64,000 nucleotides of DNA from Candidatus Binataceae bacterium (GTDB lineage: Bacteria > Desulfobacterota > Binatia > Binatales > Binataceae): assembly GCA_050011435.1 (NCBI GenBank), contig JBEKJC010000001.1, positions 85,556-149,555 on the forward strand, read 5' to 3'. The position numbers and the translations under genes are program-made. Shown here one piece after another: positions 23,154 to 59,279 of this stretch. Under the pieces are notes generated by a model. The model saw only the letters and a program-made list of their open reading frames with translations, did no database searches and was not told where the DNA came from. How positions within the stretch are numbered: position 1 is the stretch's first letter; every line of letters starts with the position of its first letter.

Positions 23154-23355
23154 GTTGAGGAGCGCGAAACTATAGCTTTTTCGGAAACTGAAACCTCACG
23201 AGGCTACAGACTTCCCATCTGCTTGAAGAGAGGACCGTTCTGCACACGATGCCGCCATTCCCGCAGGACTTAGCCGGCTTCCCGAGCATCGCGAGCAGTC
23301 CGAAAAGTCAGGTCAAGACTGTTGGGCTGCTCGTCAATCATGATGGTTTCACAAT
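23154..23355 (+). repeat. Composite interspersed repeat: module A GTTGAGGARCGCAAAAC(T)ATAGTTTT, degenerate hairpin, module B, and module C CGAGCAGTCCGAAAAGTCAGGTCAAGACTGTTGGGCTGCTCG
   Basis: Direct comparison with the other copies listed below. Confidence 0.8.
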
Positions 23356-23367
23356 TTCTTTTCGCCC

Positions 23368-23607
23368 CTACTTTTCGATCCGCAATCGCCAGACTCCATC
23401 CGCTTCCTCGATCCGCATGATTGCGTAACCCTCGGCCTCGGCCGCGCGCGGGATATCGCGGGCTCCGCGCGGGTCATCGATAGTCAGTTCGATCGTCTCG
23501 CCGCGGCTCATCGCTTCGAGCCGGACCTTCGCGTGCGCCCAGTTCAGTGGGCATTTGAGGCCGCGCAAGTCGAGCCGAATGATGCCGTCAGCGTCCATCC
23601 CCGTCAT
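23368..23607 (-). CDS. TusA-like sulfurtransferase
   Basis: 79 aa with the LDLRGLKCPLN motif; the conserved CPxP cysteine is present. Confidence 0.7.
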   Translation of the reverse strand: MTGMDADGIIRLDLRGLKCPLNWAHAKVRLEAMSRGETIELTIDDPRGARDIPRAAEAEGYAIMRIEEADGVWRLRIEK

Positions 23608-23619
23608 TATACCGCATAC

Positions 23620-23781
23620 CGCTCGCGATGCCTGGGAAGTCGGCTAAGTCCTGCGGCAACCGAGTAACGCAAGCCACCAACGATTATGAGATTTTTACAG
23701 GGCGTAGCCCGCATCTTTACCAACGGGAAGTCTGAAACCTCGATGAGGTTTCAGTGAAGCTAATGTTTTGCGCTCCTCAAC
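23620..23781 (-). repeat. Composite repeat in reverse orientation, with core hairpin GAAACCTCGATGAGGTTTC
   Basis: Reverse complement matches modules B, hairpin and A. Together with the 23154 copy it flanks the TusA gene in inverted orientation. Confidence 0.8.
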
Positions 23782-23855
23782 AACTTCTTTCAGGCGCGAG
23801 GGCGCTTTTGACGGCGCGCGCACGCCCGGTATATCTTTTAAGCGAGGTCGCCGCC

Positions 23856-24479
23856 ATGCCGTTTAAGATCACGATGTATTCCGATTTCATTTGCCCCTTC
23901 TGTTACATCGGCTTTGAAGTTTTTCGCAAGCTCAAGCCGGAATTCGATCTCGAACTCGACTGGCGCGGCTTCCAGATACATCCGGAATGGCCGGCGGAGG
24001 GTATGCCCGCGGCCCAGTGGCGCAACGGGATGGACGCGGACACGCGCCGTGCGATTTGGGAACGCATCAAAGCGATGGCGGTGGCGGCCGGCTTCGAAAT
24101 GAAGGCGCCCGAGACCCTGACCAATTCGCGGCTCGCACTCGAGGCCGCCGAGTTTGCCAAAGAGGCGGGTGCCGGCGAGGCCTTCGAGGAGCGCGTCTAT
24201 CGCGCGTATTTCTACGAGGGGCGCAATATCGGCAGCCAGGCGGTGCTCGCCGATCTCGCCGCCGACGTTGGCCTTTCGCGCGACGACCTCAATCTGGCGC
24301 TCGAGTCGAATCGCTATTCGCTGCGCCTCAAGAACAACTCGCTGATCGCCCACCGCAACGGCGTCAGCGGGGTGCCGACGTTTTTCATCGGCGACTATCC
24401 GTTGGTCGGAGCGCAGAGCGAGGACGTCATGCGCCAGGTGCTCCAGCGCGTGAGCCAGCGCCTTGCGGCGGCCAAATAG
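23856..24479 (+). CDS. DsbA/FrnE-like thioredoxin-fold oxidoreductase
   Basis: Starts MPFKITMYSDFICPFCYIG; CPFC active site. The upstream part of the listed ORF lies inside a repeat element, so the start is set at 23856. Confidence 0.7.
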   Translation: MPFKITMYSDFICPFCYIGFEVFRKLKPEFDLELDWRGFQIHPEWPAEGMPAAQWRNGMDADTRRAIWERIKAMAVAAGFEMKAPETLTNSRLALEAAEFAKEAGAGEAFEERVYRAYFYEGRNIGSQAVLADLAADVGLSRDDLNLALESNRYSLRLKNNSLIAHRNGVSGVPTFFIGDYPLVGAQSEDVMRQVLQRVSQRLAAAK

Positions 24480-24527
24480 CGAGCGCCAATCGTGGACCCT
24501 TACCGCAAGATTTGGCGGATTACCCGG

Positions 24528-24649
24528 GCGATGCGAGCATCGATCAATGATGGAGTTTTCACAGGGCGCAGCCCGCATCTTATAACGGGAAGTCTGAAAC
24601 CTCGTGAGGTTTCAGTTTCCGAAAACCATAAGTTTTGAGTTCCTCAACC
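24528..24649 (-). repeat. Composite repeat (modules A, hairpin, B, and the CAATCATGATGG module), reverse orientation
   Basis: CAGGGCGCAGCCCGCATCTTATAACGGGAAGTCTGAAACCTCGTGAGGTTTCAG...GAGTTCCTCAAC. Confidence 0.8.
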
Positions 24650-24677
24650 ACCTCTCCCGCAGCAAGTCCGGGGTAAG

Positions 24678-25475
24678 ATGATGATTCTCGATAGCTTCAA
24701 GCTCGACGGCAAGCTCGTGCTGATCACCGGCGCCGGACGCGGACTTGGCCGTGCGATGGCCGTGCGCTTTGCCAACTGCGGCGCCGATATCGTTGCCGCC
24801 GCGCGCACCGTCGCCCAACTCGACGAGACCGCGGCGCTGGTCCGCAATATCGGCCGCAAATGCCTCGTCGTGCCGACCGACGTCGGCAAGTCCGACCAAT
24901 GCAATGCGATGGTCGCGGCGGCGATCAAGGAGTTCGGCCGGGTTGACGTGATGGTCAATAACGCCGGCATCGGCGAGGATTCCTTCGGCAAGCCGATCGA
25001 GCAGATCACCGACGACGAATGGCATCGCGGCATCGACGTCAACCTCTCGAGCCAGTTCTATTGCGCGCGCGCCGTCATTCCGCATATGGTCGCGGCCAAA
25101 CGCGGCAAGATTATCAACGTCGCCTCCGGCTATGGCCTGCGTGGCGGTAAACATAACTATATGTATGCCTGCTCGAAGGGCGCGGTGCTCCAGCTCACGC
25201 GCTCGCTCGCGCTGACCTATGCCGACAACAACATCCAGACCAACTGCATCGTGCCCGGCATTTTTCCGCACAACGAGGCCATGATGAGGTTCTTCAAGGG
25301 CGGCAAGTTCATCCCGATCGGACGCCCCGGCCAGGACGAGGACGTCGGCCCGCTCGCGATCTTCCTCGCCTCCGACGCCTCCAATCATGTCAACGGCGAA
25401 CTCATCATAATCGACGGCGGCGGCTTGGCCGGCGGCGTCGTCCCAACCGGTGTCGCCCCCGGCAACCCCACGTAA
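24678..25475 (+). CDS. SDR-family oxidoreductase
   Basis: LVLITGAGRGLG Rossmann motif and YxxxK region. Confidence 0.8.
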   Translation: MMILDSFKLDGKLVLITGAGRGLGRAMAVRFANCGADIVAAARTVAQLDETAALVRNIGRKCLVVPTDVGKSDQCNAMVAAAIKEFGRVDVMVNNAGIGEDSFGKPIEQITDDEWHRGIDVNLSSQFYCARAVIPHMVAAKRGKIINVASGYGLRGGKHNYMYACSKGAVLQLTRSLALTYADNNIQTNCIVPGIFPHNEAMMRFFKGGKFIPIGRPGQDEDVGPLAIFLASDASNHVNGELIIIDGGGLAGGVVPTGVAPGNPT

Positions 25476-25616
25476 CTGATCGGTGCACTAATATGGTGAG
25501 TCTCGAATTCGATAAAAAATTCTCAGCCGGTCATCATCCTTTGGCTCCTTCCGTCATCCTCATGTACCGTCATCTTGGACGGCGGCCACCCTCGTCCGAC
25601 CGTCCCTGCCGACAAT

Positions 25617-25741
25617 CGAGCAACGCGAGCAGTCCGAAAAATCAGGTCAAGAGTGTTGGGCTGCTCGTGGCCCACCGTCGGCCTGGAATGCCGTGAAACC
25701 TCGTGAGGTTTCAGTGAAGCTAATGTTTTGCGTTCCTCAAC
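25617..25741. repeat. Composite repeat (module C, module E GGCCCACCGTCGGCCTGGAATGCCGTG, hairpin, reversed module A)
   Basis: Sequence identity to copies at 23282, 38610 and 41913. Confidence 0.8.
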
Positions 25742-25752
25742 CACTAAATTAC

Positions 25753-25797
25753 GCGCGCAGGACCGCGCGAGATCCTTCACTTCGTTCAGGATGACAC
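25753..25797 (-). repeat. Second repeat family: GTCATCCTGAACGAAGTGAAGGAYCTCGCGCGGTCCT (copy 1)
   Basis: Reverse complement matches 30551..30590 almost exactly. Confidence 0.7.
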
Positions 25798-25810
25798 CGG
25801 TGCTGAACGA

Positions 25811-26632
25811 ATGCGGCCTGCGGCAAGGATAGCAATGGCAGACACGAAGACGCTCCCCGAAGGACTCAAGGTTTTTGCGCTCAACGGCAAGGTCGCGCTG
25901 GTAATTGGCGCAGAGCATGCGCTCGGCCGCGTCGCCGCGCTCACGCTCGCCGAGGCCGGGGCCAAGGTGATGATCGCGTCGCAGGACGCCGGTACCGAGG
26001 AGGCGCTCAAGGAAGTCGCCAAGGCCATCGAAGCCACCGGCTCCAAGGCCTTGATCCGGGTCCAGCGCGCGGCCTTGCGCGCCGATTTGAGCGCCGCGGT
26101 TGACTTGGCCGTGACCAAACTCGGCGGCCTCGACATCCTCGTCACCGCACTCGATGAGCCATTTTACGGGCCGGCCGAATCCGCCGATGATTCCGTCTTC
26201 GACCGCGTCTTCGAGAATAACTTCAAGACCGCCTGGATGGCGTTTCAGGAGGCCGGCCGCGTGATGCTCCAGCGCGGCGGTGGCGTCATCGTTAACATCA
26301 ATTCGGTGCTGGCCGAGCGTGGCGTCCCCAACGCGACGCTCTACTGCGCGGCCAAGGGCGCCGTGCGCAATCTGGTCCGGGCGCTTGCGCTCGAATGGGC
26401 GCGGCGCGGCATCCGGCTCAACCTGCTCGAATGCGGATGGACGGGGGAGGAGGGCAGTATCGCGCTCGAGCCGGGCGACTTCAGCGAGAAGCTGATCAAG
26501 TACCTGCCCTATCGTCGTTTGCTCAAGCCCGAGGAAATCGCCGGCGCGCTGCTCTACCTGGTGTCACCTGCGGCCGGCTTCGTCACCGGCGAATCGATCG
26601 CGGTTGACGGCGGCCTCCTCTGCCGCGTCTAA
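25811..26632 (+). CDS. SDR-family oxidoreductase (divergent)
   Basis: VALVIGAEHALG glycine-rich motif and SDR-like length. Confidence 0.65.
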   Translation: MRPAARIAMADTKTLPEGLKVFALNGKVALVIGAEHALGRVAALTLAEAGAKVMIASQDAGTEEALKEVAKAIEATGSKALIRVQRAALRADLSAAVDLAVTKLGGLDILVTALDEPFYGPAESADDSVFDRVFENNFKTAWMAFQEAGRVMLQRGGGVIVNINSVLAERGVPNATLYCAAKGAVRNLVRALALEWARRGIRLNLLECGWTGEEGSIALEPGDFSEKLIKYLPYRRLLKPEEIAGALLYLVSPAAGFVTGESIAVDGGLLCRV

Positions 26633-26729
26633 CCGCGGTGGCGTCCCGCAAATACCCTTACACAGCCCAAGCGGTCCGGGGTTTTCGATCAGCCCGATGA
26701 AGTCGAGGTATCTTCGTTGCAGCTCCAGG

Positions 26730-26834
26730 GCGCGCCAAGGTGATCGGCTGGACCTGCTCGCGACGCTCATCGATGCCTACGAGCGCAAGCACTTTCCGAT
26801 TGACCCGCCGTTATTATTTCAGGACCGCAGTTAG
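26730..26834 (+). pseudogene. Remnant of a HigA-family antitoxin N-terminal segment
   Basis: ...QGDRLDLLATLIDAYERKHFPIDPP matches the conserved N-terminal helix of HigA-type antitoxins (EGDxLDVLxTLVEAYExKHxPI). There is no HTH domain and no toxin partner. Confidence 0.3.
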
Positions 26835-27179
26835 CATCAACGCGCTTTCCTCGAGCGCCTCGACCGCGTGCGGCGCCTCGCGATCGATCACGGCGACCAT
26901 GCCCGCATTCAGAGTCGCGCCGTTGAGGCGGATCGCTCCCGTTACCACCGTCAGCGCGACCGTGCCGCGCGCACGATGCTCCTTCAGCGCCGCGCCCGGC
27001 TTGAGCACCAATAGCGTGACGCTGAGCTCAGAATTCTTGGCCAGAGATTCCGCCGCGCGATCGCCTGCGGCCCATTGCGGTCCGCGTTTGAGGCGTGCGA
27101 TTTCGTCGGCGATTTTCAGGCTCGCGATACCGTCCACGGGATGACCCGCGGTCCATTCCGATTTCGTCGCATCAGTCAT
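26814..27179 (-). CDS. Cupin domain protein
   Basis: 121 aa with small beta-barrel composition; weak assignment. Confidence 0.4.
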   Translation of the reverse strand: MTDATKSEWTAGHPVDGIASLKIADEIARLKRGPQWAAGDRAAESLAKNSELSVTLLVLKPGAALKEHRARGTVALTVVTGAIRLNGATLNAGMVAVIDREAPHAVEALEESALMLTAVLK

Positions 27180-27227
27180 AACTCACACCTCGAACGATCT
27201 CTCGATTTGAGTGTATGCGCGGATGGC

Positions 27228-27998
27228 TTACTCGGCGAGCGGCGAGGCCAGCGTCAGCCCGCCATCCACCATGATAATCTGTGCGGTGACGTAGCGCGCC
27301 TCGGGCGTGCACAGCAGCGCGACCACCGACGCGACTTCATCGAGTTCCGGCAGGCGTTTGAGCGCCGTCCGTTCAGCCGTGACTTTCATCGCGCGCTCGA
27401 AGTCGTCGCCGAAGTAAATCCGCGAGGAGTCGCTGTCGATCATCCCGAAGTTGACGCCGTTGACCGTGATCCCGCGCGGGCCGAGTTCGAATGCGAAGTC
27501 GCGCACCATCGCTTCCATCGCGGCTTTCGCCGCGCCCAGCACGCCGTGTCCAGGCAGATAGCGCATCGAATCGATTCCGGAAATCATCAGGATACGCCCG
27601 CCGTCGCCCATGAAATTGCTCGCCTCCTGCACCGCCGCCACGAAGCCGCCCACGCTCAGGTTAAACGTGCGGGTCAGGTGATGCGGCTTGACCGCGAGCA
27701 GCGGTTTGAAGGCGGTGGCAGCCGCGTTGACGACCAGGATATCGATCCGCCCGAGTTGCCGGCCGGCACTTTCGACGAGCCCGCGCACCTGCGCGTCATC
27801 TTCCATATCGGCCTTGAGCAGGATCGAGCGCGGCGCGAGTTCGCGCACCTCCGCCAGCGTGCGCAGTGCGCTTTCCTCGTCGCGCCGATAGTTGAGCGCG
27901 ATCGTCGCCCCGCCCCGCGCGAGCGTCATCGCGATCGCGCGTCCCAGCCCGCGCGTGCCGCCGGTGATCAGCGCAACCTTGTCTTTGAAATCGAGCAT
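27228..27998 (-). CDS. SDR-family oxidoreductase (3-oxoacyl-ACP reductase-like)
   Basis: VALITGGTRGLGRAIA motif. Confidence 0.8.
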   Translation of the reverse strand: MLDFKDKVALITGGTRGLGRAIAMTLARGGATIALNYRRDEESALRTLAEVRELAPRSILLKADMEDDAQVRGLVESAGRQLGRIDILVVNAAATAFKPLLAVKPHHLTRTFNLSVGGFVAAVQEASNFMGDGGRILMISGIDSMRYLPGHGVLGAAKAAMEAMVRDFAFELGPRGITVNGVNFGMIDSDSSRIYFGDDFERAMKVTAERTALKRLPELDEVASVVALLCTPEARYVTAQIIMVDGGLTLASPLAE

Positions 27999-28123
27999 CC
28001 GACGAAGTTACCCGGTTGATCGATGGCTTGCCACAACTTGACGGTCACGGAGCGCGTCGTGTTTTCACCCATCGTTCACCTATGCAGAAGAGCTTTGCGT
28101 GACTGCGCCGGACGCCCGCTTCG

Positions 28124-28171
28124 TCACCCTGAGCAGTCCGAAAAATCGGGTCCAGACGGTTGGGCTGCTCG
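28124..28171 (+). repeat. Solo module C copy
   Basis: GAGCAGTCCGAAAAATCGGGTCCAGACGGTTGGGCTGCTCG. Confidence 0.6.
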
Positions 28172-28281
28172 AAGCGAACGGGTCCCGGTGTTGGCTACTC
28201 CTACCCGCACCGATTGCTCCACGGCCGGTTTCCGGTCATCATTCCCCGTCGAATCCGGTCGCACGCTCAAGGGGTGGATTG

Positions 28282-28630
28282 CATGGCAGTTCTGGACGAA
28301 AGCGCTTTTCAGTCTCGCATCGGCAAGGGCACCAAGGTCTCGGGCAAGCTCAACTTCAAATCGCCCGCCAAGATCGAGGGCGAGGCCGAGGGCGAGATCA
28401 CCGGCGACGATATCTTGATCGCGCAGGGCGCTATAGTGACTGCGCGGATCGCCGCAACGCGCATCACGATCGCGGGCTCGGTCAGCGGCGAGTTGATCGC
28501 GCGCGAGCGCATTGAAGTGCTCGCGACGGCCCATCTGCGTTGCACCATCAGCACGCCGAGCCTGGTGCTGAACGAAGGCGCGGTGTTCGACGGCGATTGC
28601 AAGATGCCGCGCGAGAAAGCGGCCGCCTGA
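28282..28630 (+). CDS. Bactofilin family cytoskeletal protein
   Basis: From the internal ATG: MAVLDESAFQSRIGKGTKVSGKLNF...IEGEAEGEITGDDILIAQGAIVTARI...GSVSGELIARERIEV, a beta-helical repeat pattern. The upstream part of the listed ORF is repeat-derived. Confidence 0.65.
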
Positions 28631-28725
28631 CGCGGCATTCCACGCCTGCGAACCGGCCGCGAGCGGCATTCCATGCCGCCGGTGGATCACGCTCGCGTTG
28701 CTCGATCACACTTTGCGCCGGAGGT

Positions 28726-29325: not shown

Positions 29326-30026
29326 CGCGATCGCTCTCCCGCGCGGTCGTGCCGTGCAGGATACTGCCGGCCAGCGTGATGGCGCGGCACGGTTGCGGGA
29401 AACCTCGCTGTGGCGGCGTCGCGATACCGATCGAAACCGAGATGTTGCGAACTCATATAATGCCCGCGAATCAAGCGTGATCCGTCGAATTTCATAGCGC
29501 AACTCCTGTGGCGAGGGTTTTTTCGCCGACCGGTCTCGCGCGTTCTGCGGCGTCATGCTGGCGCGTTCGGCCTGGACGCGCAATCGCGGCAGTAGCCGTC
29601 CACCATTAGTTCGAGAGACTAAGGCGGCAAATGCGTAAATAATCGGTAGGCAGCCTCGCGAGATAATTGGAAACACTTCAGAATTTGACCTTTAAAAGCG
29701 ATTAAAGATAAAGTAAGATGATACCGAAGCAGATTCTAATCCGTGACGGTTGATACCATAGGTGCTGGCGTGAATAAGTTCGCCGTTCATAGCGTCATAA
29801 GGAGCAGCCGTTCCTGCGGGCAGTTCCAGTTCTGTCACCGGCCCTCCGAGCCGCTAGTGGAGCGGGTGGTTGGTTGGGTCCTAAGCGTGACGATTAGGGC
29901 TTAGAAGCTTGAAGTTGGCTTCGTGACGCGGGCGGGAGCCTTGAAGGGGGTTTCAAACGTGAGCTGGCGTTTAATTAGTTGAATGGATGGCCAATCTTAG
30001 GAAATTTCAAAAGGAACCGAACCGAT

Positions 30027-30233
30027 ATGCTGGCAGACGCCAAGGTTTTGACCGTGAGCGAACTCTCCGATTACCTGCGGGTTCATCGCTCGACGATTTA
30101 TCGCCTCTTGAAAAAGGGGCAACTGCCGGGGTTCAAGATCGGCAGCGACTGGCGCTTCAATGTTGAGGCAATCGATGAGTGGCGGCTGCACCAGGGTGCT
30201 ACTGCGCTCGAGGAATTGCGCAACGCCAACTGA
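30027..30233 (+). CDS. Excisionase-family helix-turn-helix DNA-binding protein
   Basis: Begins MLADAKVLTVSELSDYLRVHRSTIYRLLKKGQLPGFKIGSDWRF; a paralog lies at 53466..53717. Confidence 0.7.
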   Translation: MLADAKVLTVSELSDYLRVHRSTIYRLLKKGQLPGFKIGSDWRFNVEAIDEWRLHQGATALEELRNAN

Positions 30234-30312
30234 GACTGCGCCACATCATTGAAGGCCATCCGCCGCGGCGGTCGCGAGTCGCCGCATGGGTGCGCCGCGG
30301 ACGATAAGATTA

Positions 30313-30452
30313 TTAAGAACGCAAAACTGTTATTTTCACTGAAACCTCGCGAGGTTTCAGACTTCCCGTTTGTAAGATGCGGGCTGCGCCGTCATGATCG
30401 ACGAGCAGCCCCACAGTCTTGACCTGACTTTTCGGACTGCTCGCGACGCTCG
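30313..30452 (+). repeat. Composite repeat (A, perfect hairpin GAAACCTCGCGAGGTTTC, B, C)
   Basis: Full-length exemplar of the family. Confidence 0.85.
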
Positions 30453-30550
30453 GATCGGCGGCCAAGTCACTGGCGAGCGAAGGCCCCGGTCTCGTAGACC
30501 CTAGTTATAGGTCGGCTTACAAACGTCCCCCACCCGCACGCACCATCACG

Positions 30551-30618
30551 GTCATCCTGAACGAAGTGAAGGACCTCGCGCGGTCCTCCGCGCGTCATCC
30601 ACTGTGTTCAGGATGACA
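30551..30618 (+). repeat. Second repeat family copy 2, itself an imperfect inverted repeat (GTCATCCTGAACGAAGTG ... CACTGTGTTCAGGATGAC)
   Basis: Matches 25753..25797 and is self-complementary. Confidence 0.7.
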
Positions 30619-30629
30619 GAGGAGCCACG

Positions 30630-35076: not shown

Positions 35077-35078
35077 GG

Positions 35079-38307: not shown

Positions 38308-38571
38308 CGCGAGGAAATTCAGACGCGACCGCACGCCCTTGATCTGAAATAAGATCAGCCAGAGTTTCTGTTCGTCTCGGCGAGTTTCAGACACGGGGTG
38401 TCTCAGCCGGGCCCGATTGCGGCGGCGGCGCTGGTCAATTGACAATAGTTAAGCCGTATTCCGTGCGCAATGTATAAATTCGCGGCCGCTTCGGCACAGT
38501 CCAGTCTCATCCACGATGCGATCTACGCATGGCGGGTTTGGATTGGGTTTGCCGCGGGGCGTAATCCAGCG

Positions 38572-38701
38572 GTTGAGGAGCGCAGAGCTTTTGGTTTCCT
38601 TCTGAAACCTCAACGAGGTTTCACGGCATTCCATGCCGACGGTGGGCCACGAGCAGCCCAACAGTCTTGACCTGACTTTTCGGACTGCTCGCGATGCTCG
38701 G
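38572..38701 (+). repeat. Composite repeat (A-like, hairpin GAAACCTCAACGAGGTTTC, module E, module C)
   Basis: Sequence identity to other copies. Confidence 0.8.
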
Positions 38702-38794
38702 TAAGTAGCGAAATCGGGCCGGAACTGTCGTCGTCCATCGGCTCCTTTCCGCACGTCTCGGCGGCCCACTTGAGCATCGGGAGCGTCTAACCAT

Positions 38795-38850
38795 AATGGG
38801 AAGTTTGAAATCTCGTGAGGTTTCAATGAAGTTAAAGTTTTGCGCTCCTA
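38795..38850 (-). repeat. Repeat (B-like, hairpin GAAATCTCGTGAGGTTTC, reversed module A)
   Basis: GGGAAGTTTGAAATCTCGTGAGGTTTCAATGAAGTTAAAGTTTTGCGCTCC. Confidence 0.7.
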
Positions 38851-38857
38851 TACGACT

Positions 38858-39744
38858 CTATTTTATTCCCGCGTCGTCGAGGACGCCGAGGGCAAGCGCC
38901 GACCAGTCCATCTGATCGCGCCCGTGCGCAAGGCCGGCGAGGAGACGGTCGCGCACGACTGCCGCAACCGGCATCGGCACACGCGCGTCGCCGGCGGTTT
39001 TCAACACCAGCTCAACGTCTTTGAGACCGAGCGCGAGGGCGAAGCCGGCAGGGGTATGACGTTTCGCCGCAACCATCTCGCCGTAGCGCTGGTAAACCGG
39101 GCAGGCGAAGAGGGTCTTGCCGAGCATCTCGGCGACTTGCACGCGGTCAACGCCGTTGCGCTCGGCCATGGCGAATGCTTCGGCCATCGATTCGAGCGCC
39201 GCCGCGATCAGAAAGTTGCCGGTGAGCTTGGCGACGTTGGCTGCACCCGCATCTTCGCCGTAATCGAAAATCGCGCGCCCGACCGCATCGAGCAGCGGAC
39301 GCACGCGCTCCTTGGCGGCGGCCGGCCCCGAGGTGCAGACCACGAGCTGGCGGGCGGCCGCATTGTCGGGGCGCCCGAAGACCGGCGCCGCTACATAGAT
39401 GCTGCCGTAATCGGCGTGACAGGCGGCCATCCGGCGCGAAGTCGCGGGGGCGATGGTACTCATCGAGACGTGAATCCCGCTTGGCCCGAGCCGAGCCGCG
39501 ATGCCGTTGGCGCCGGTGACGACGCTTTCGACGGCGGCATCGTCGGCCAGCATCGTCATAACGATGCCGCCCGGTATGGCCGCATCGCCGGCGCTCGATG
39601 CGCGCGTGGCGCCCTTGGCGAGGAGCGGTGCGGCCTTCGACGCGGTGCGGTTATGCACGCGCAATTTGATTCCGGCGGCGGCGACGTTCGTCGCCATCGG
39701 CAACCCCATCGCGCCCAATCCGATAAATCCGGCTTCTGTAATCA
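38858..39744 (-). CDS. NAD(P)-dependent oxidoreductase, 3-hydroxyisobutyrate dehydrogenase family
   Basis: From the internal start: MITEAGFIGLGAMGLPMATN Rossmann motif. Confidence 0.75.
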
Positions 39745-41666: not shown

Positions 41667-41690
41667 AGTGAGACAGTGACGGGTCCAATT

Positions 41691-41779
41691 GTTGAGGAGT
41701 CCGAAACTATAGTTTTAGGAAACTGAAACCTCACTGAGGTTTCAGACTTCCCCCCTGTAAAGATGCGGGCTTCGCCCTG
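41691..41779 (+). repeat. Repeat (A, hairpin GAAACCTCACTGAGGTTTC, B) in the spacer between E1 alpha and E1 beta
   Basis: GTTGAGGAGTCCGAAACTATAGTTTTAGGAAACTGAAACCTCACTGAGGTTTCAGACTTCCCCCCTGTAAAGATGCGGGCTTCGCCCTG. Confidence 0.85.
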
Positions 41780-41912
41780 GAACAACCTCATCACGGGTAA
41801 AAGCACGCGATGCTCGGGTAAGCGGCCGTGTCGGGCGGGAACGGAGAGAGCGAATGAATGCGGAGACCTTCGCGGTCTTCTCGCAAGCAGAAAGAGCTGG
41901 GGCGTCGCGCGA

Positions 41913-41997
41913 TCGAGCAACGCGAGCGTGGCCCACCGGCGGCATGGAATGCCGTGAAACCTGATGAGGTTTCAGAAAACTATAAGTTTTGAGTGTT
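41913..41997 (-). repeat. Repeat (module E, hairpin GAAACCTGATGAGGTTTC, reversed module A) in the spacer between E1 alpha and E1 beta
   Basis: Sequence identity to the 25617 copy. Confidence 0.8.
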
Positions 41998-42032
41998 TCA
42001 GCCAATTGGTCAATCTATTCGAGGTTTGAACG

Positions 42033-43004: not shown

Positions 43005-43025
43005 TCTCACTGCGGTGCGCGAGTG

Positions 43026-43109
43026 GTCGAGGAACGCAAAACCTATATTTTCTCTGAAACCTCATAAGGTCTTAGAGTTCCCCTCTTGTAAGATGCGGGC
43101 TTCGCCCTG
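43026..43109 (+). repeat. Repeat (A, degenerate hairpin, B) in the spacer between E1 beta and E2
   Basis: GTCGAGGAACGCAAAACCTATATTTTCTCTGAAACCTCATAAGGTCTTAGAGTTCCCCTCTTGTAAGATGCGGGCTTCGCCCTG. Confidence 0.8.
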
Positions 43110-43120
43110 TCGCTACTGAG

Positions 43121-49647: not shown

Positions 49648-49673
49648 CGCGCAACGGAAAGGGGAAGTTCTCA

Positions 49674-49740
49674 AGGAACGCGGGACATTGGGCTTTTAAG
49701 GAAACTGAAACCTCAGTGAGGTTTCAGACTTCCCATCGGG
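49674..49740 (+). repeat. Repeat (degenerate A, hairpin GAAACCTCAGTGAGGTTTC, B-like) abutting a terminator palindrome
   Basis: AAGGAAACTGAAACCTCAGTGAGGTTTCAGACTTCCCATCGGG. Confidence 0.75.
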
Positions 49741-49743
49741 ATT

Positions 49744-49779
49744 GACGCTCGCGTTTTTCTATTGAAAAACGCGAGCGTC
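49744..49779. terminator. Bidirectional intrinsic terminator between the convergent ACAD and SDR genes
   Basis: Perfect 16-bp inverted repeat GACGCTCGCGTTTTTC-TATT-GAAAAACGCGAGCGTC, with an A/T run built into the stem and an A-rich tract following. Confidence 0.6.
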
Positions 49780-49794
49780 AATCACTGAAAAAAA

Positions 49795-51301: not shown

Positions 51302-51335
51302 AACCACTCCCCCGCTGATGACGGAGACTGATGGA

Positions 51336-51350
51336 GCAATTGCGGTGCCG
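51336..51350 (-). promoter_or_regulatory. Candidate sigma-54 promoter (-24 GGCAC, -12 TTGC) for the small ORF at 50999..51301
   Basis: Minus-strand sequence CGGCACCGCAATTGCT fits GG-N10-GC with exact sigma-54 spacing. It lies about 25 to 30 nt upstream of the ORF start, in an AT-rich spacer just downstream of the activator gene. Confidence 0.4.
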
Positions 51351-51480
51351 GTCGCAATTGTGGTTATGCGACAAAGCTAAGTATCTAATTTTATTGAATA
51401 AATGGAAAATTGAACAAATGACAAGAAATGGACATCGAAGGCTGCTGCCAAGTTCGATTGGCACTCGGTGCCAAGTCTGC

Positions 51481-53091: not shown

Positions 53092-53465
53092 CTATTGCAC
53101 GTCTGCGATGCCGCAATCGTGTTCAGGCCGGTCCCGATAGTCATCTGGCGTTGAGTGACGCCGTTAGCACTATCACGGGATCGTTTGGGCCGGATACACC
53201 AATTACTGCGGGCCGGAATCACCACCGAGCGCATTGGACCATGCGATTTCGCAGCATGCAACCGAAGAAGCGCGCCGCGTCAGTATGGACTGGATAAGGC
53301 GATAATAGGGCGAGGATGCGCTTGGTGATTCTGCGCACCAACTGTCGCGAATAATTCGAACGGGCGGTCGGAGACACTGATTCGCCGCCGGCCAGAAATG
53401 ACCGAATGGCCTACCTGAGGCGGAATGCACCCTGAGCGCAGCGCACGGTTGCCGAGGCGAGACTG

Positions 53466-53717
53466 CTAGCTCGAGCGCCGATGCCGCCGCCGGGCGCTGA
53501 CCGACTCCTGCTCTTCCTCGGAGCGCCAGCGGTCGATCATATCGATGCTGAAACGCCATTCCGAACCCACACGAAAGCCCGGTAGCTGCTTGGCACGCAG
53601 CAGGCGGTATACGGTGGTCGGATGTACGCGCAGGTACTCCGAGAGCTCGCGAACCGTCAAAACCTTTGGCGGCGTGGGGGCTACGCCAGATTTCTTCTTC
53701 GAACGTTTGTCTTCCAC
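53466..53717 (-). CDS. Excisionase-family helix-turn-helix DNA-binding protein (paralog)
   Basis: KVLTVRELSEYLRVHPTTVYRLLRAKQLPGFRVGSEWRF; highly similar to the protein at 30027..30233. Confidence 0.65.
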   Translation of the reverse strand: MEDKRSKKKSGVAPTPPKVLTVRELSEYLRVHPTTVYRLLRAKQLPGFRVGSEWRFSIDMIDRWRSEEEQESVSARRRHRRSS

Positions 53718-53996
53718 GAGCTCACTTTAGACCATTTTGGTTGCTAAATACCAGCCCCACGATACTCGTGCTACGCATAGCCGCCAAAAAATCGTTGCAT
53801 GGAGGCTCGGCCGAATCGCCGGTTTTCACCCGGCGCTCCGGCGTTGCAATTTCGTGCTATGCAATCCGCGCCGCCGTTCTTCGCTACGTATCGTTACATT
53901 TTATGACAAAGAGACGAAGCTCATGCGAACGTGAGTAGGCGCTTGCAGGTGTTCGAGGATTTTCTTGAGCGATCCGAGGTTCGGCCGGGAGTCTAA

Positions 53997-54073
53997 TGGT
54001 TGCGGGGAGAGGATTTGAACCTCTGACCTCCGGGTTATGAGCCCGGCGAGCTACCAGACTGCTCCACCCCGCC
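53997..54073 (-). tRNA. tRNA-Met, initiator-type (fMet), CAT anticodon
   Basis: Reverse complement reads GGCGGGGTGGAGCAGTCTGGTAGCTCGCCGGGCTCATAACCCGGAGGTCAGAGGTTCAAATCCTCTCCCCGCAACCA. It forms a cloverleaf, has a 1:72 mismatch, three consecutive G-C pairs in the anticodon stem (GGG/CCC), and an encoded CCA. Confidence 0.85.
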
Positions 54074-54282
54074 CGCGAATACTAACGGCCACATGGCGGG
54101 CGGGTCAATACGATACCGCAAATGGGATGCTGCACGCTGCCAATGGGATCGACCAAGATCAACTCGCAGAGCGATTTTTGGTCGCCAAGATCTTCATCGA
54201 GGTCTGCGCCAGGGTCTTGGCGACAATCTTAACGACCGCGACGGCCTCTCGAAGACGGCGTGCGAATTCGCCGAGCAGGCGG

Positions 54283-54462
54283 CTAGTCGGCGAGGACGCG
54301 GAGGTTGCAATCGCGATGGAGCTTGCCGAACTCGATCACTTCGAGCTCGATCGGGGTCGGATTCGGTTTGGGCTCGCTCAACATAAGATGGCGCGCGGTG
54401 GCGGGGTCCATGCCGTCGGCCTCGACGGAGAGATTATGGGAGTCGCAGAGAATAAAGGCCAT
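54283..54462 (-). CDS. Possible small ORF (59 aa) in an otherwise empty 480-bp gap
   Basis: Own translation: MAFILCDSHNLSVEADGMDPATARHLMLSEPKPNPTPIELEVIEFGKLHRDCNLRVLAD. No recognised family. Confidence 0.25.
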   Translation of the reverse strand: MAFILCDSHNLSVEADGMDPATARHLMLSEPKPNPTPIELEVIEFGKLHRDCNLRVLAD

Positions 54463-54602
54463 TGATGAAACTCCTTGAAGCCCCTCAAGCTACACGAAGC
54501 ACCGACGCCTGTCAGCCTCGGTGGGCCTCGATGCATTAACCGGCGCGCAAGCTTTTGTGCTACTCCAAATTTCAAATCTTCAAACAGGAGCGCGTATTTG
54601 CC

Positions 54603-55763
54603 ATGAGCCTTAAGAATCAGGCTGCGGCGATCGGAATCGCCGAACTCAAGCCTTGGAAGGAACCGCCGCCCGACTTAACGCCGTTGAGCCTGATGGCGCG
54701 CCTGACCGCCGAGGCGATCGCCGATGCCGGCCTCGCCAAGAGCGACATCGACGGCTTCCTGGTCGGGATGCCGACGGCGGACCCCGGCTTTATCTATCCG
54801 GCCAGCGCCGCCGAGGTCCTCGGGATTAATCCGCGGATGCTCAATGTGGTCGATATCGGCGGGGCGAGTCCGGCCGGGATGATCTGGCGCGCCGCCGCGG
54901 CGATCCAGGCGGGCATGTGTTCGGCCGTGCTCTGCATCGTTGCGGATCTGAATCGCGTCGGCGATCAGAGAGTGCCGGTAATTTCAGTGCAGCGCGAGTT
55001 CGAAGCGCCCTACGGGAACATCGGGGCCAACTGCGGCTATGCGATGATCGCGAATCGCCACATGTACGAATACGGCACGACTCCTCAGCAGATGGCGAAG
55101 GTGGCGGTCGATCAGCGCAAGAACGCGCTCAAGAATCCGCTCGCCGCGTTCGGGGACAAGCCGCTGACGATCGACGACGTGCTCAATTCGCGGATGATCG
55201 TCGACCCGCTGCACCTGTTCGAGATCGTAAGTCCGTGCAGCGGCGGATCGGCGGTTATAATCGCGTCGCCCGAAGTCGCCAAACGGGCGAAGAATCCTCC
55301 AGTGTGGCTGCTTGGCGCGGGCGAATACTCCAATCATTCGTCGATCACCTACGCGCCGTCGCTGACCGAGTCGCCGATCAAGCCCGCCGCCGACACCGCG
55401 TTCAAGATGGCCGGGGTCGAGCGCAAGAACATCGATCTGGTCTGCCCTTACGATTGCTACACGATCACGGTGCTGGTCACGCTGGAGGACGCGGGCTTTT
55501 GCAAGAAAGGGCAGGGCGGACCCTTCGCCGCCGAGCACGACCTCTCATACGCGGGCGATTTTCCCTGCAATACGCACGGCGGCCAGCTTTCGTTCGGGCA
55601 GCCCGGCCTGGGCGGCGGTATGAGCCACGTGGTCGAGGGCATCCGCCAGTTGATGGGCCGCGGCGAAGGCCGTCAGGTGAAGGACGCCGCGCTGGCCTAC
55701 GTCAACGGCAACGGCGGCATCATGAGCGAACAAGTCAGTCTGATCCTGGAGCGCCGGTCATGA
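54603..55763 (+). CDS. SCP2-type thiolase family protein
   Basis: Thiolase-like N- and C-terminal halves with a catalytic Cys region; followed by a DUF35 partner. Confidence 0.75.
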   Translation: MSLKNQAAAIGIAELKPWKEPPPDLTPLSLMARLTAEAIADAGLAKSDIDGFLVGMPTADPGFIYPASAAEVLGINPRMLNVVDIGGASPAGMIWRAAAAIQAGMCSAVLCIVADLNRVGDQRVPVISVQREFEAPYGNIGANCGYAMIANRHMYEYGTTPQQMAKVAVDQRKNALKNPLAAFGDKPLTIDDVLNSRMIVDPLHLFEIVSPCSGGSAVIIASPEVAKRAKNPPVWLLGAGEYSNHSSITYAPSLTESPIKPAADTAFKMAGVERKNIDLVCPYDCYTITVLVTLEDAGFCKKGQGGPFAAEHDLSYAGDFPCNTHGGQLSFGQPGLGGGMSHVVEGIRQLMGRGEGRQVKDAALAYVNGNGGIMSEQVSLILERRS

Positions 55764-56161
55764 GCGATTACATCAAGCCACTACCGAAGCCGTCGCCGAC
55801 CAGCCGTCCCTATTGGGAGGCGGCGCGGCGCCATGAATTGCAGCTTCAGCATTGCGGCGCCTGCAACAAGTACATCTACTATCCGCGTCCGCGATGTCCC
55901 AACTGCATGTCCGACAATCTGAAGTGGGAGCGCGTGAGCGGGCGCGGCAAGCTCTACAGCTATACCATCGTGCGCCGCGCCTCGACGCGTTCGTTTGCCG
56001 ACGGGCCATACGTGCTGGCGATCGTCGAGCTCGACGAGGGGCCGCGCCTGACGACGAATCTGATCGCGCCGCAGGATCAGTTGAAGATCGGAATGCCGGT
56101 GGCCGTATATTTCGACGACGTCACGCCGGAACATACGCTGGTGAAATTCAAGCCGGCCTGA
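55760..56161 (+). CDS. Zn-ribbon/OB-fold protein (DUF35), thiolase partner
   Basis: CGAC...CPNC zinc ribbon followed by an OB-fold; its start overlaps the thiolase stop. Confidence 0.7.
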   Translation: MSDYIKPLPKPSPTSRPYWEAARRHELQLQHCGACNKYIYYPRPRCPNCMSDNLKWERVSGRGKLYSYTIVRRASTRSFADGPYVLAIVELDEGPRLTTNLIAPQDQLKIGMPVAVYFDDVTPEHTLVKFKPA

Positions 56162-56220
56162 TAGGTGAGGGGCCGCACCCTTGCCGTGCGGCTCCTCCTA
56201 TAACTACCGCCCAGGCCGGA

Positions 56221-56514
56221 TCAGCCAATCGGCAGCTTGGTCAGAATCGTCAGAACCTCGTCCTCGACGATATCGTGGATGCGCGGGCCCCATTTCTGGA
56301 AGTCGGGATCAGTTAGCAGCGCGGTGACCGCGTTGGCGTCCGGCACTTCCCACCAATCGACGACCGTGTTGAGACGGCCGACGAGGCCCCCGTAACTGCC
56401 GAGCAGCTTCCAGCCGTGCTTCTTGTTGATGAACGGAGCGATCTCGTTGATCAGCGAAATGAAATCCGGAAGCTTACCTGGGTGCAGTTTGATCGACGCC
56501 TGCAAATACATCAT
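56221..56514 (-). CDS. NIPSNAP-like small alpha/beta-barrel protein
   Basis: 97 aa; composition and length only; weak assignment. Confidence 0.4.
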   Translation of the reverse strand: MMYLQASIKLHPGKLPDFISLINEIAPFINKKHGWKLLGSYGGLVGRLNTVVDWWEVPDANAVTALLTDPDFQKWGPRIHDIVEDEVLTILTKLPIG

Positions 56515-56589
56515 GAGCGTGGTCTCCTTTTATACGGCTCGACTAACGCCGCGGGAACGCAAAGTCAAGGAGCCGACCTTTAGCCGCGA

Positions 56590-57288
56590 TTATGCGAGCA
56601 GGACCGCGACGATGCCGGTGAGGAAGACGCCGTCGAAGGTGCCCGCGCCGCCGATCGATGCGACCGGCGCGCCGAGACTGCCGAGCTTGTCGAGATTCAT
56701 GAGGTCGGCGCCAATCAGCGTGCCGAGTACGCCGCTGACATACGCGACTGCGTCCACGTGCGTTCCGCCGCCCAGCAGCCCGGTGAGCCCAACGGCGACC
56801 AGCGCGGCGACCACTGGCGGGATGAACATCGGCGTTGCGATGCCCAGTCCGGGCACTGGCCGCGCGCAGCGATTCACCACCAGCGCGACGATTGCCACGC
56901 CGATCGCCGCCGGCAGAATCGCGGCGGGCTGTTTCAGCAGTGCGTATAACGAAATCAACACCGGCACCAGCGCACCGCCGACATTGATCGCGAGCGTGGT
57001 GGTCGCGCCCGCATAGCGCATCGGCAGCCGATAGCGCATACCGAAGCTGTCGACGATCTCCTGCGGATACGGCCGCCCGCTCGCGATCTTCGTCAATGGG
57101 ATATTTATGTAGCTGCCGATCAGGCTCGCGAACAGCGCCAGAAACGCCATCTCCGGCGGCAGCCCGACCATGAGGAAGGCGTGTTTGATCACGCCGATTT
57201 CGAGCAGCACGAACAGGAACGCGAGAATCAGGAAGAAGATTATCGCGTAGAGGATTAGAAAGGGGGCGAAAAACATCGCATGTCTCAT
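56590..57288 (-). CDS. Polytopic membrane protein (DUF1614-like)
   Basis: About 6 transmembrane helices; start at an internal Met. Confidence 0.45.
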   Translation of the reverse strand: MRHAMFFAPFLILYAIIFFLILAFLFVLLEIGVIKHAFLMVGLPPEMAFLALFASLIGSYINIPLTKIASGRPYPQEIVDSFGMRYRLPMRYAGATTTLAINVGGALVPVLISLYALLKQPAAILPAAIGVAIVALVVNRCARPVPGLGIATPMFIPPVVAALVAVGLTGLLGGGTHVDAVAYVSGVLGTLIGADLMNLDKLGSLGAPVASIGGAGTFDGVFLTGIVAVLLA

Positions 57289-57350
57289 AGCACGGGCAGG
57301 GCACACGCCACGAGCCGGCGAATTTCGCAGGCGGTCGGTTACGCGGTCGG

Positions 57351-57387
57351 AAAAAAAAGACGAGAGGGGGCGGCGGTCCCTCTCGTC
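57351..57387 (-). terminator. Intrinsic terminator on the minus strand
   Basis: GACGAGAGGG-GGCGGCGGT-CCCTCTCGTC: a 10-bp GC-rich stem, which on the minus strand is followed by T8. Confidence 0.55.
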
Positions 57388-57506
57388 GCTATGCCAACGA
57401 CAGTCGCAACGAGGCTGTGCTAATCAGCCTTTGCCGCGGCCGTGATGATCGTGCGCTATTGTTCCGGCTGTACGAGCAAGTAAGATTGCGCCGGGACCAA
57501 AGAAAC

Positions 57507-58070
57507 ATGAATGCCACCGACCGTATCGAATTGCTCCGGCTGCTCGCCCGCGAATCATATTTCGAGCGCGAACTGACTCTGGCCTCGGGCCGCGCCTCGA
57601 ATTTTTACATCGACTGCAAACGCACGCTCTATCTGCCGCGCGGCGCTCATCTGGCGGGCGCACTGATGCTCGAACTGGTGATGGCCGAGGGCATCGGGCA
57701 GATCGGCGGGATGGCGGCGGGCGCGTTGCCGGTTACCGACGCGATCGTCAACGCGGCCTTCGACCGCGGCTACGACGTGACTGGCTTCTTTGTGCGCAAG
57801 GAGACCAAGGCGCACGGTCTGCAGCAGCAGATCGAGGGCGTGTTCAAGAAAGAGCGCACGACGGCCGTGATCGACGACACGATTACGACCGGCGGCTCGA
57901 GTCTGCAAGCGGTTACGGCGATGCGTGCGGCCGGCGCGACGGTGCGCGTCGCGTTCGCGCTGGTCGAGCGCGGCGAAGGCGCCGCCGACGCATTCGCCCG
58001 CGAAGGCTTGAAGTACGTCTATCTCTACACGGCCGAGGAAATCCGCGCGGCGCGCGCGACCGGCCGATGA
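57507..58070 (+). CDS. pyrE: Orotate phosphoribosyltransferase
   Basis: PRPP-binding motif VIDDTITTGGS; the start is at the internal ATG (MNATDRIELL). Confidence 0.85.
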   Translation: MNATDRIELLRLLARESYFERELTLASGRASNFYIDCKRTLYLPRGAHLAGALMLELVMAEGIGQIGGMAAGALPVTDAIVNAAFDRGYDVTGFFVRKETKAHGLQQQIEGVFKKERTTAVIDDTITTGGSSLQAVTAMRAAGATVRVAFALVERGEGAADAFAREGLKYVYLYTAEEIRAARATGR

Positions 58071-58975
58071 CCGCGATGGACTCCGCTCACGTCCTAAGCG
58101 GACGCTCGCTGCTGACCGCGATCTTCGGCGATCCGGTCGCGCATTCGCTTTCGCCCGCGATGCATAACGCGGCCTATGCCGCGCTCGCGATGGAGCATGC
58201 GTACGCGGCCTTCCATGTGACGCCGGAGCGCCTGCGCGAGGCGATTCGCGCGATCCCCGCGCTCGGCATCCTCGGCGTCAATCTGACCGTGCCGCACAAG
58301 GAGCGGGCCTTGCGGATGATGGCGTATCTGAGCGACGAGGCGCTCCTGCTGCGGGCGGTCAATTGCGTAATCAACCGCAATGGGGAACTGCACGGCGACA
58401 ACACCGACGCGCGCGGCCTCGAGGCCGACCTGCGCGACCATCAGGTGACGATCGAAGGCGGTCTCGCGATCGTAATCGGTGCGGGCGGCGCGGCTTCGTC
58501 CGCAGTGCTCGCGATGTTGCGGCTGGGAGCGGCGCGCATCGTGATTTGCAATCGCACGATCGCGCGCGCGAATCGGCTGGCCCGCGGCTTCGCGCGCTAC
58601 CTGGGTGCGCGGGGCGGCGGACGTCCGCGCCAGACGATCGAGGCGCGCGGGCTGGATACGCTGGTCAACGCGGCTGCGATGAGCGCGGCGGCGATCGTAA
58701 TCAACGCGACGCCGATGGGGCTCAAGACCGGTGGCTTCGCGCCGCTCAGCTATGCCGCCACGCCGACCGCTTGCGTCTTTTACGACGTGATTTACGCGCA
58801 CGAGGCGACGCCATTTATCGCCCCGGCAATTGCGGTCGGACGGCGCGCGATCGACGGCGCCGGGATGCTGCTGAATCAGGGGGAACTCGCGTTCGAACTC
58901 TTCAACGGGGTTGCGCCGCCGGCGGGTGTGATGCGCACCGCGCTGATGTCGGCGCTCGGCCGCCGGGAGGGATAA
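58067..58975 (+). CDS. aroE: Shikimate dehydrogenase
   Basis: GDPVAHSLSPAMHN and NTD motifs; GAGGA NADP-binding site. Confidence 0.8.
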   Translation: MTAMDSAHVLSGRSLLTAIFGDPVAHSLSPAMHNAAYAALAMEHAYAAFHVTPERLREAIRAIPALGILGVNLTVPHKERALRMMAYLSDEALLLRAVNCVINRNGELHGDNTDARGLEADLRDHQVTIEGGLAIVIGAGGAASSAVLAMLRLGAARIVICNRTIARANRLARGFARYLGARGGGRPRQTIEARGLDTLVNAAAMSAAAIVINATPMGLKTGGFAPLSYAATPTACVFYDVIYAHEATPFIAPAIAVGRRAIDGAGMLLNQGELAFELFNGVAPPAGVMRTALMSALGRREG

Positions 58976-58984
58976 TGTGGAGAG

Positions 58985-59108
58985 TTGTTGAGGAACGCAA
59001 ACCTTGCGCGAGCGCGTTTCCGCCTGACTTGGCCACCGACCGAGCATCGCGAGCGTCAATCATGATGGTTTCAAACTTCCCATCTGTTAAAGATGCGGGC
59101 TTCGCCCT
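58985..59108 (+). repeat. Repeat (A, partial C, CAATCATGATGG module, B)
   Basis: GTTGAGGAACGCAAACC...CGAGCATCGCGAGCGTCAATCATGATGGTTTCAAACTTCCCATCTGTTAAAGATGCGGGCTTCGCCCTG. Confidence 0.8.
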
Positions 59109-59223
59109 GTGGAAAATCGAGTGATGGAGCAGCTACATCGTCTTCGTAAGAAGACGCCCGCTTGCGCGCTCGCGCAAGGTCTCCTGGACGCGATCCGCAA
59201 GACCCACTTAATTAGTTCACTGT

Positions 59224-59279
59224 GGGAAGTTTGAAACCTTTCAAAGGTTTCAAGAAACTAAGATTTTGCACTCCTCAAC
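59224..59279 (-). repeat. Repeat (variant hairpin GAAACCTTTCAAAGGTTTC, reversed module A)
   Basis: GGGAAGTTTGAAACCTTTCAAAGGTTTCAAGAAACTAAGATTTTGCACTCCTCAAC. Confidence 0.7.

Follow-up and report, generated by a model that had tools for sequence, protein, structure and literature searches.

In Pseudomonas and Enterobacteria, short extragenic palindromes of the REP/REPIN type are mobilized by RAYT transposases, while TIR repeats flank TIRYT transposase genes ('TIRtrons') in Acidobacteria and Stenotrophomonas. Both kinds of tyrosine transposase recognize a folded hairpin on single-stranded DNA (PMC3116915, PMC3733652). At one of their ends, REP palindromes bear an unpaired tag, GTAG or CGTC, and inverted repeats flanking TIRYT genes have been reported to contain the motif GGGGWSAS (PMC3733652). 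Here, a family of intergenic hairpin repeats is described from 64,000 nt of a Candidatus Binataceae bacterium (GCA_050011435.1, contig JBEKJC010000001.1, positions 85,556-149,555 of the forward strand; this whole stretch is called the window). The analysis confirmed a genuine multi-copy, modular, mosaic family. On balance, they probably represent a non-autonomous, selfish palindromic repeat, present as copies and as decayed halves, that has spread through the intergenic DNA of a Binataceae lineage. Their multi-copy intergenic occurrence, palindromic pairing with module A outward, rapid presence/absence changes, invariant stem with free loop and lack of target-site duplication argue for such a mobile origin.

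Architecture of a modular repeat family

Twelve hairpin-bearing units and several hairpin-less fragments are found in 12 intergenic spacers between positions 23150 and 59289, i.e., in 12 of the 30 window spacers that are 90 nt or longer. The exact core CTGAAACCTC-N2-3-GAGGTTTCAG occurs five times in the window compared to zero in 100 shuffles, and half-sites with at most one mismatch number 19 against 2.5 ± 1.4 expected. An nhmmer profile was built from the unit of module A, hairpin and ACTTCCC using 12 aligned window copies, and it matches 12 units, all within 23150-59284. An earlier inspection of the letters by a model (the sequence-only reading) had counted at least 14 copies at 12 or more loci in 36 kb. 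This count is reached when the half-hairpins at 23340-23351 and 59063-59073 are added to the 12 profile units. The several conserved modules it listed also recur in the window (A nine times, B six, C five, E four and CAATCATGATGGTTTCA twice), and module D, the variant hairpin TTGAAACCTTTCAAAGGTTTCAA and an E + D fragment have now been added to that inventory.

The conserved unit of about 75 nt comprises, in this order, a purine-rich tail, AGTKGTTGAGGAACGCAAAAC, a T-rich spacer, the hairpin and GACTTCCC or CGGCATTCC. Module A reads AGTKGTTGAGGAAC(G/T)CAAAAC and is followed by the T-rich spacer of variable length, while the 3' side of the hairpin is occupied either by junction F (GACTTCCC, the ACTTCCC type) or alternatively by module E (CGGCATTCCATGCCG...). 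Optional cassettes B, D, E and the 36-nt C lie 3' of the conserved unit. Module D (GACGCTCGCGATGCTCGG) occurs in both orientations, and the modules are arranged as A-HP-F-B-D or A-HP-E-C-D (HP, hairpin) as well as in the mirror images of these orders. An AT-rich palindrome suspected in module A did not hold across copies (mean z = -0.19).

A scan of species-representative genomes with the hairpin plus ACTTCCC as pattern, which sets a lower bound on the taxonomic range, yielded at least 72 loci from at least 10 metagenome-assembled genomes (MAGs). Among the matches listed, all labels are Binataceae, Binatus or 'delta proteobacterium' (an older label), and homologues of the window proteins are likewise named Binataceae; viral contigs contained no copy of the family. 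Window and retrieved loci (L001-L072) together provided 124 distinct units, whose surroundings were annotated by gene calling with a codon-usage model. Outside called genes lie 118 of the 124, although coding sequence makes up 78% of this DNA. In 37 cases the A end is turned toward a same-strand stop codon and in 42 toward a start codon, which leaves no polarity with respect to transcription; these counts overrule the initial idea that A is always preceded by a stop codon.

The higher-order arrangement, in contrast to this lack of polarity, is strongly directional within pairs: with neighbouring units at most 600 nt apart (n = 20), the A modules point outward in 19 pairs, inward in none, and one pair is in tandem. 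Hence, the canonical element is a long imperfect palindrome, tail-A-HP-F/E-(B)-(C)-D-centre-D'-...-HP-A-tail. Such pairs measure 160-645 nt in total, mostly 210-430 nt, and full composites about 160-430 bp. All three window composites fit this scheme, and both that were folded form single long hairpins (Table 1). The two arms of a composite may carry different cassettes, and solo units would correspond to half palindromes. Sequence conservation sets in about 5 nt ahead of the A core and is preceded by the purine tract, which varies in length and reaches up to 89% A+G at positions -10/-9.

The hairpin itself spans 22-23 nt with a 10-bp stem, the middle 8 bp of which are nearly invariant. Across all 126 hairpins, identity at stem positions 2-9 is at least 98%, and in the 41 copies that had not been selected by the search pattern these positions are still paired and 93-95% identical. 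Compensatory changes among the 126 hairpins are confined to the terminal pairs, with C-G replaced by T-A in three cases at position 1 and in nine at position 10, where one A-T and one G-C also occur. Loops of 2 nt are found in 49 copies and loops of 3 nt in 77. This combination of a fixed stem sequence with a free loop length suggests that the folded hairpin is recognized sequence-specifically; a duplex operator is disfavoured because it would need a fixed spacing, and a purely structural RNA because covariation would be expected.

Table 1 Repeat units and fragments in the window (positions count from the first letter of the window; A-out, module A outward at both ends)
Feature	Position	Strand	Composition	nhmmer E value	Context and folding
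c1	23150-23356	+	tail, A, hairpin 23188-23209 (3' arm degenerate), ACTTCCC, reversed D with C 23297-23332, CAATCATGATGGTTTCA	8.5e-17 (match 23150-23222)	PNPOx-TusA spacer
c2	23620-23789	-	A, hairpin 23732-23754, ACTTCCC, B, D/D' fragments	1.6e-21	between tusA start and dsbA start
c3	24500-24654	-	A, hairpin 24594-24615, ACTTCCC, B, D	1.4e-18	A end 28 nt upstream of SDR start codon 24678
c4	25600-25749	-	A, hairpin 25693-25714, E, C cassette 25631-25666, D		SDR-SDR spacer
Solitary C cassette	28130-28172	-	C 28135-28170, 89% identity to cassette		sole C copy outside a D module
Hairpin-less fragment	28632-28707	+	partly duplicated E + D		downstream of bactofilin gene
c6	30306-30455	+	degenerate A, hairpin 30339-30360, ACTTCCC, B, C cassette 30403-30438, D	1.9e-16	
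c7-c8	38568-38861	.	A-out composite (c7, centre, c8)		
c7	within 38568-38861	+	A, hairpin 38602-38624, E, C cassette 38651-38686, D		
c8	within 38568-38861	-	D', ACTTCCC, hairpin 38805-38826, A		
c9-c10	41687-42009	.	A-out composite (c9, centre, c10)		E1alpha-E1beta operon spacer; single long hairpin, -136 kcal/mol, z = -2.6
c9	within 41687-42009	+	A, hairpin 41723-41745, ACTTCCC, B, D		
c10	within 41687-42009	-	D', E, hairpin 41954-41975, A		
c11 (solo)	43022-43110	+	A, hairpin 43054-43075 (degenerate 3' arm), (A)GTTCCC, B	7.9e-18	between E1beta and E2
c12	49666-49790	+	degenerate A, hairpin 49705-49727, ACTTCCC, compact D-D' palindrome 49741-49784	2.8e-15	between convergent genes
c13-c14	58981-59289	.	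A-out composite		between convergent aroE-like and dnaJ genes; single long hairpin, -130.5 kcal/mol, z = -3.9
c13	within 58981-59289	+	interrupted A, reversed D, CAATCATGATGGTTTCA half-hairpin, ACTTCCC, B		
c14	within 58981-59289	-	variant hairpin 59231-59253 TTGAAACCTTTCAAAGGTTTCAA, A		

The repeats also affect gene annotation, as the sequence-only reading had supposed. The open reading frames (ORFs) 25523-25918 and 38449-38826, which it took as spurious, both exist, cross elements and are without codon-usage support. Likewise borne out were the false extensions of two gene starts: the dsbA frame starts at 23754 within a hairpin, its likely true start being ATG 23856, from which the protein has 207 aa as in relatives, and the bactofilin frame starts at 28160 within a C cassette.

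Turnover between relatives

The sequence-only reading had proposed to look for empty spacers in related genomes, and close relatives are indeed element-free at the same sites. This was followed in most detail for the E1 dehydrogenase operon, for which 80 orthologous loci were retrieved with E1beta as query. In the window, the E1alpha-E1beta spacer of 366 nt holds composite c9-c10 and the E1beta-E2 spacer of 116 nt holds the solo unit c11. Locus L074 (E1beta 98% identical) has spacers of about 37-40 nt and 11 nt, both empty, and no unit in 7.5 kb. A different composite is present in the first spacer of L077/L078 (96%; spacers of about 310 nt and 204 nt), and a degenerate element in that of L076 (96.6%; about 300 nt and 58 nt). 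Relatives with at most 92% E1beta identity have short spacers or quite different repeat families and none of these units there. A second region gives the same picture: four loci (L153-L156; SDR 88-89% identical) retain synteny across about 9 kb, with spacers of 6-164 nt and no unit at the six element loci of the window. For instance, the spacer corresponding to the c1 site is 79 nt long in L153, that of the c4 site 31 nt in L153/L154 and that of the c2 site 6 nt in all four, each without an element. At a further site, L052 is filled and L021 short, the flanking proteins being 96-97% identical. Since close relatives have empty spacers at the same sites, the elements are gained or lost quickly.

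At shorter range, the window can be compared with L073, an independent contig that is 99.7% identical over 9 kb. The 36-nt C cassette of unit c7 (GAGCAGCCCAACAGTCTTGACCTGACTTTTCGGACT) is precisely absent from L073; the other window copies of C are those of c1, c4, c6 and the solitary cassette. Six of seven C copies occupy an identical site, AC^GCTCGCG, in module D. The C cassette could be a very small active insertion, or else be subject to palindrome-driven deletion. Composite c7-c8 (286 bp) also holds six of the 28 mismatches between window and L073 and both indels.

A rearrangement coincides with two further units. The dsbA gene together with about 55 nt upstream (23796-24480) is inverted relative to the syntenic loci L153-L156 and the P0003 contig; in those relatives, PNPOx, tusA and dsbA share one strand, and tusA and dsbA are separated by the 6-nt spacer. 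The breakpoints of this inversion adjoin c2 and c3. Simple recombination between inverted copies is insufficient to explain it, because c2 and c3 have the same orientation.

Other small repeats share the territory of the family. More distant relatives (L081, L082, L084, L094) fill the same two E1 operon spacers with a different repeat (CAGCGATCAGCG... / GCTGAAAGCTGA...), which suggests that these spacers generally act as places where small repeats land or are retained. A second, unrelated family, GTCATCCTGAACGAAGTGAAGGAyCTCGCGCGGTCC..., closing on GTTCAGGATGAC, is present in the window at 25773-25795 (-), 30551-30573 (+) and 30595-30617 (-). It also occurs in L020, L028, L079, L084, L088, L090 and L093, with variants in many related loci, and one L093 copy encloses the module D motif GAGCATCGCGAGC. 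Upstream of truB and of an ltaE-like gene, the pyrimidine-rich complement of the tail reaches the start codon with no Shine-Dalgarno sequence visible (L016 ~1690-1715, L004 ~6618-6700, L034 ~3265-3290, L049 ~300-327). In L040 (1600-1700), an element adjoins a 45-nt tandem duplication of the ribH 3' end (CGCACGTTGAAGGAACTCGAATAA...), and this duplicated end resembles module A (GTTGA-GGAACTC-AA).

The genes flanking the elements in the window are ordinary chromosomal ones, encoding PNPOx, TusA, DsbA, SDRs, bactofilin, the E1alpha/E1beta/E2 dehydrogenase operon, an acyl-CoA dehydrogenase, AroE and DnaJ. Within 29326-30233, a stretch of 700 nt without a called gene, AT-rich in the part that was read (29660-30026), is followed by a 68-aa HTH_17 (excisionase-type) ORF at 30027-30233 and then by unit c6; this region may be the remnant of an integrated element.

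Mobility and its alternatives

In the mobile reading, each arm of the element would consist, from outside in, of the purine-rich tail, A, the T-rich spacer, the 10-bp hairpin, ACTTCCC or E, optional B/C and D at the centre. An enzyme supplied in trans would recognize the hairpin in folded, single-stranded form, and the most likely candidate is a tyrosine/HUH transposase of the RAYT/TIRYT type. This enzyme would move or copy the element without target duplication; HUH-type elements likewise make no target-site duplication. Solo units would result from loss of one palindrome arm, and cassettes would be gained and lost via small indels at fixed sites. Inserted elements lengthen operon spacers, create spurious ORFs and coincide with rearrangement breakpoints, whereas a host benefit such as mRNA-end protection or protein binding, if any, would be secondary.

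Several results weigh against a mobile origin. In about 1.3 Mb of fetched fragments, which formed the search space, no transposase was found: a regular expression for the HUH+Y motifs returned nothing, and the best tblastn match to E. coli RayT had an E value of 0.08. The outer ends of the elements are fuzzy, and no exact insertion junction can be reconstructed; filled and empty sites are too diverged for alignment of junctions at base level. The two arms of a given composite resemble each other no more (0.70) than do arms taken from unrelated composites (0.69), so that recent copying of whole palindromes is not supported. The GTAG/CGTC tag that defines REPs is absent, the hairpin being flanked by ...TTTC/AAAC on the 5' side and by ACTTCCC or CGGCATTCC on the 3' side. 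Finally, cores are kept at orthologous sites across species in which the flanking proteins are 79-96% identical and the remaining spacer is unalignable. Such shared occupied sites lie upstream of truB (L004/L016), upstream of the ltaE-like gene (L034/L049) and downstream of ribH (L037/L040), and one orthologous pair shows a compensatory change from CTC/GAG to CTT/AAG. Host selection or gene conversion could account for this retention just as well.

Candidates for an encoded transposase were also sought among the neighbours of the repeats. ORFs between inverted pairs encode an LD-carboxypeptidase, a beta-lactamase-fold protein, a Sel1-like protein and TusA instead, and the proteins present in several copies comprise CoA-transferases, acyl-CoA dehydrogenases and enzymes of a similar kind; both sets stem from housekeeping genes. 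A lead of a different kind comes from the outer tails: GGGGWSAS is present in 10 of 82 (12%) compared to 2% in shuffles, five times at position -11 from the A core. These tails are a weak lead toward a TIRYT-type link. The sequence GGGGAGAG fits the motif and is found, e.g., at L015 ~3555, L047 ~6330 and L071 ~4095.

A more specific version of the mobile reading is possible, if tentative. Here, the family would be a vertically inherited REPIN-like replicator, mobilized by a TIRYT-like tyrosine/HUH or other hairpin-recognizing enzyme, with an 8-bp stem core fixed across the sampled species-level Binataceae genomes, still active and partly co-opted by the host. Activity is suggested by the C cassette indel between 99.7%-identical strains, and partial co-option by the cores retained near truB, ltaE and ribH.

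Among the alternatives, maintenance by the host survives best, yet it appears unlikely. Hairpin and A core would then be bound by proteins or, as RNA hairpins, shield mRNA ends or uncouple cistrons, and would be kept by selection instead of ongoing transposition; such maintenance has been proposed for some REP/BIME elements. The conserved cores at orthologous sites and their compensatory change are in line with this, as are the uneven conservation within units (stem about 95%, arms about 70% overall) and the location of elements within operons, right beside stop and start codons. In contrast, close strains lack elements at the same sites with no replacement, module content at one site differs among relatives, no orientation rule relative to genes exists, and neither a U-tract terminator signature nor a promoter signal was detected (a promoter scan gave no enrichment in elements). 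Host maintenance is, moreover, compatible with a mobile origin and so no full alternative to it.

Improbable are classical miniature inverted-repeat transposable elements (MITEs) derived from an insertion sequence (IS) with a DDE transposase, in which A would be the terminal inverted repeat and cut-and-paste transposition would leave a target duplication. The A-out pairing, the size of 160-430 bp without an ORF and the presence/absence polymorphism among close relatives would suit such elements. Target-site duplications, however, a check for which the sequence-only reading had already asked, were not detectable: direct repeats of 2-9 nt flanking the composites show no excess at any fixed or flexible offset (mean best 4.1 nt vs 3.9 ± 0.3 in controls). 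In addition, the termini are not sharply defined, and the fetched loci yielded no parent IS with such ends, neither between inverted pairs nor among their multi-copy proteins.

Less probable still is a set of genes for structured non-coding RNAs, or of cis-regulatory leaders, that just happens to be multi-copy. Several small hairpins, including a GNRA-like loop in some B copies, and the better folding of composites than of shuffled sequence would agree with an RNA. The units, however, lie in both orientations relative to flanking genes, and their module content varies from copy to copy. The covariance analysis recommended in the sequence-only reading (RNAalifold, 36 A-HP-B copies) recovered the core hairpin and a GGGC-N3-GCCC hairpin only, with no covarying pair, and stem mismatches of the G:T (8) and A:C (15) type reveal no strand preference. 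In Rfam searches of the window at gathering thresholds, tRNA-Met alone reaches the score, and permissive searches (E ≤ 1-5) of the element regions gave chance-level matches only; this tRNA-Met (CAT; 53997-54073, minus strand) is the sole Rfam/ARAGORN match in the window.

Intrinsic terminators or assembly artefacts can practically be discounted: some copies do follow stop codons or lie between convergent genes, but there is no T-run 3' of the hairpin, the terminator scan predicted none inside elements and gave counts equal or close to those of shuffles, roughly half of the units point toward gene starts, and the same elements recur in the independent contig L073 and in at least 10 MAGs, the contigs of which reach 1.4 Mb in some cases. 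Hence, of the four functions that the sequence-only reading had offered, a MITE-like or otherwise mobile nature is best supported, namely by presence/absence among close relatives, and a protein-recognized hairpin is compatible with the data, while terminators and small RNAs are disfavoured.

Comparison with described repeat systems

The sequence-only reading had likened the mosaic to BOX, ERIC or BIME elements without assigning it to a named family, and this still applies, since neither Rfam nor the literature provided a match (searches for the core sequence and for Binatota repeats retrieved nothing relevant). With REP/REPIN-RAYT systems (PMC3116915, PMC3733652), the Binataceae repeats have in common short palindromic cores at high extragenic copy number, singlets beside inverted doublets that fold into larger hairpins, the lack of target duplication and persistence in a lineage. 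They differ in their arm of about 75 nt (tail, A, hairpin and ACTTCCC) compared to 20-40 nt, in doublets of 160-430 bp, and in that no RAYT gene was found in the Binataceae fragments searched. TIRtrons (PMC3733652) likewise have long inverted repeats unrelated to REPs that are moderately abundant and dimeric, and they also occur in soil bacteria; GGGGWSAS is shared by a subset of Binataceae tails, though by 12% of copies only, and no TIRYT gene was seen in the fetched fragments.

BIMEs of E. coli and RIMEs of rhizobia similarly combine palindromic units with linker motifs in variable order and orientation, both intergenically and within operons. The Binataceae modules are longer, with a 36-nt cassette nested at a fixed site, and the likeness to BIMEs is one of architecture only, as membership would require sequence relatedness to the E. 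coli units. Correia elements (Neisseria), ERIC/IRU (Enterobacteria) and RUP/BOX (Streptococcus) are further imperfect palindromes of 100-400 bp without an ORF, which lie between operon genes, are co-transcribed as long hairpins (predicted for the repeats described here) and differ in presence among strains. None of them has sequence similarity to the Binataceae repeats, and Correia elements possess a TA duplication and sharp ends, neither of which was seen here. As in MITEs, the A cores point outward like terminal inverted repeats, the length stays below about 600 bp and there is no ORF.

For the annotation of Binataceae MAGs, the family matters as a cause of spurious ORFs and false N-terminal extensions, and operon spacing is inflated by it; E1alpha and E1beta, e.g., are separated by 366 nt instead of about 40. 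In terms of genome evolution, the repeats mark sites of fast turnover, coincide with a single-gene inversion and are possible strain markers for an abundant uncultured soil/peat lineage. Interest would rise with the finding of a dedicated enzyme or a host function; a dedicated transposase would extend replicators of the REPIN/TIRtron type to the phylum Binatota, with an unusually long modular arm.

Taken together, the family lacks at least one tested defining feature each of REPs (the tag) and of classical MITEs (the target-site duplication), yet it resembles REP/REPIN, BIME and hairpin MITEs in the way it works. It is most suitably classed as a family of known kind, i.e., interspersed intergenic palindromic mosaic repeats, and as the first of these that could be found for Binatota.

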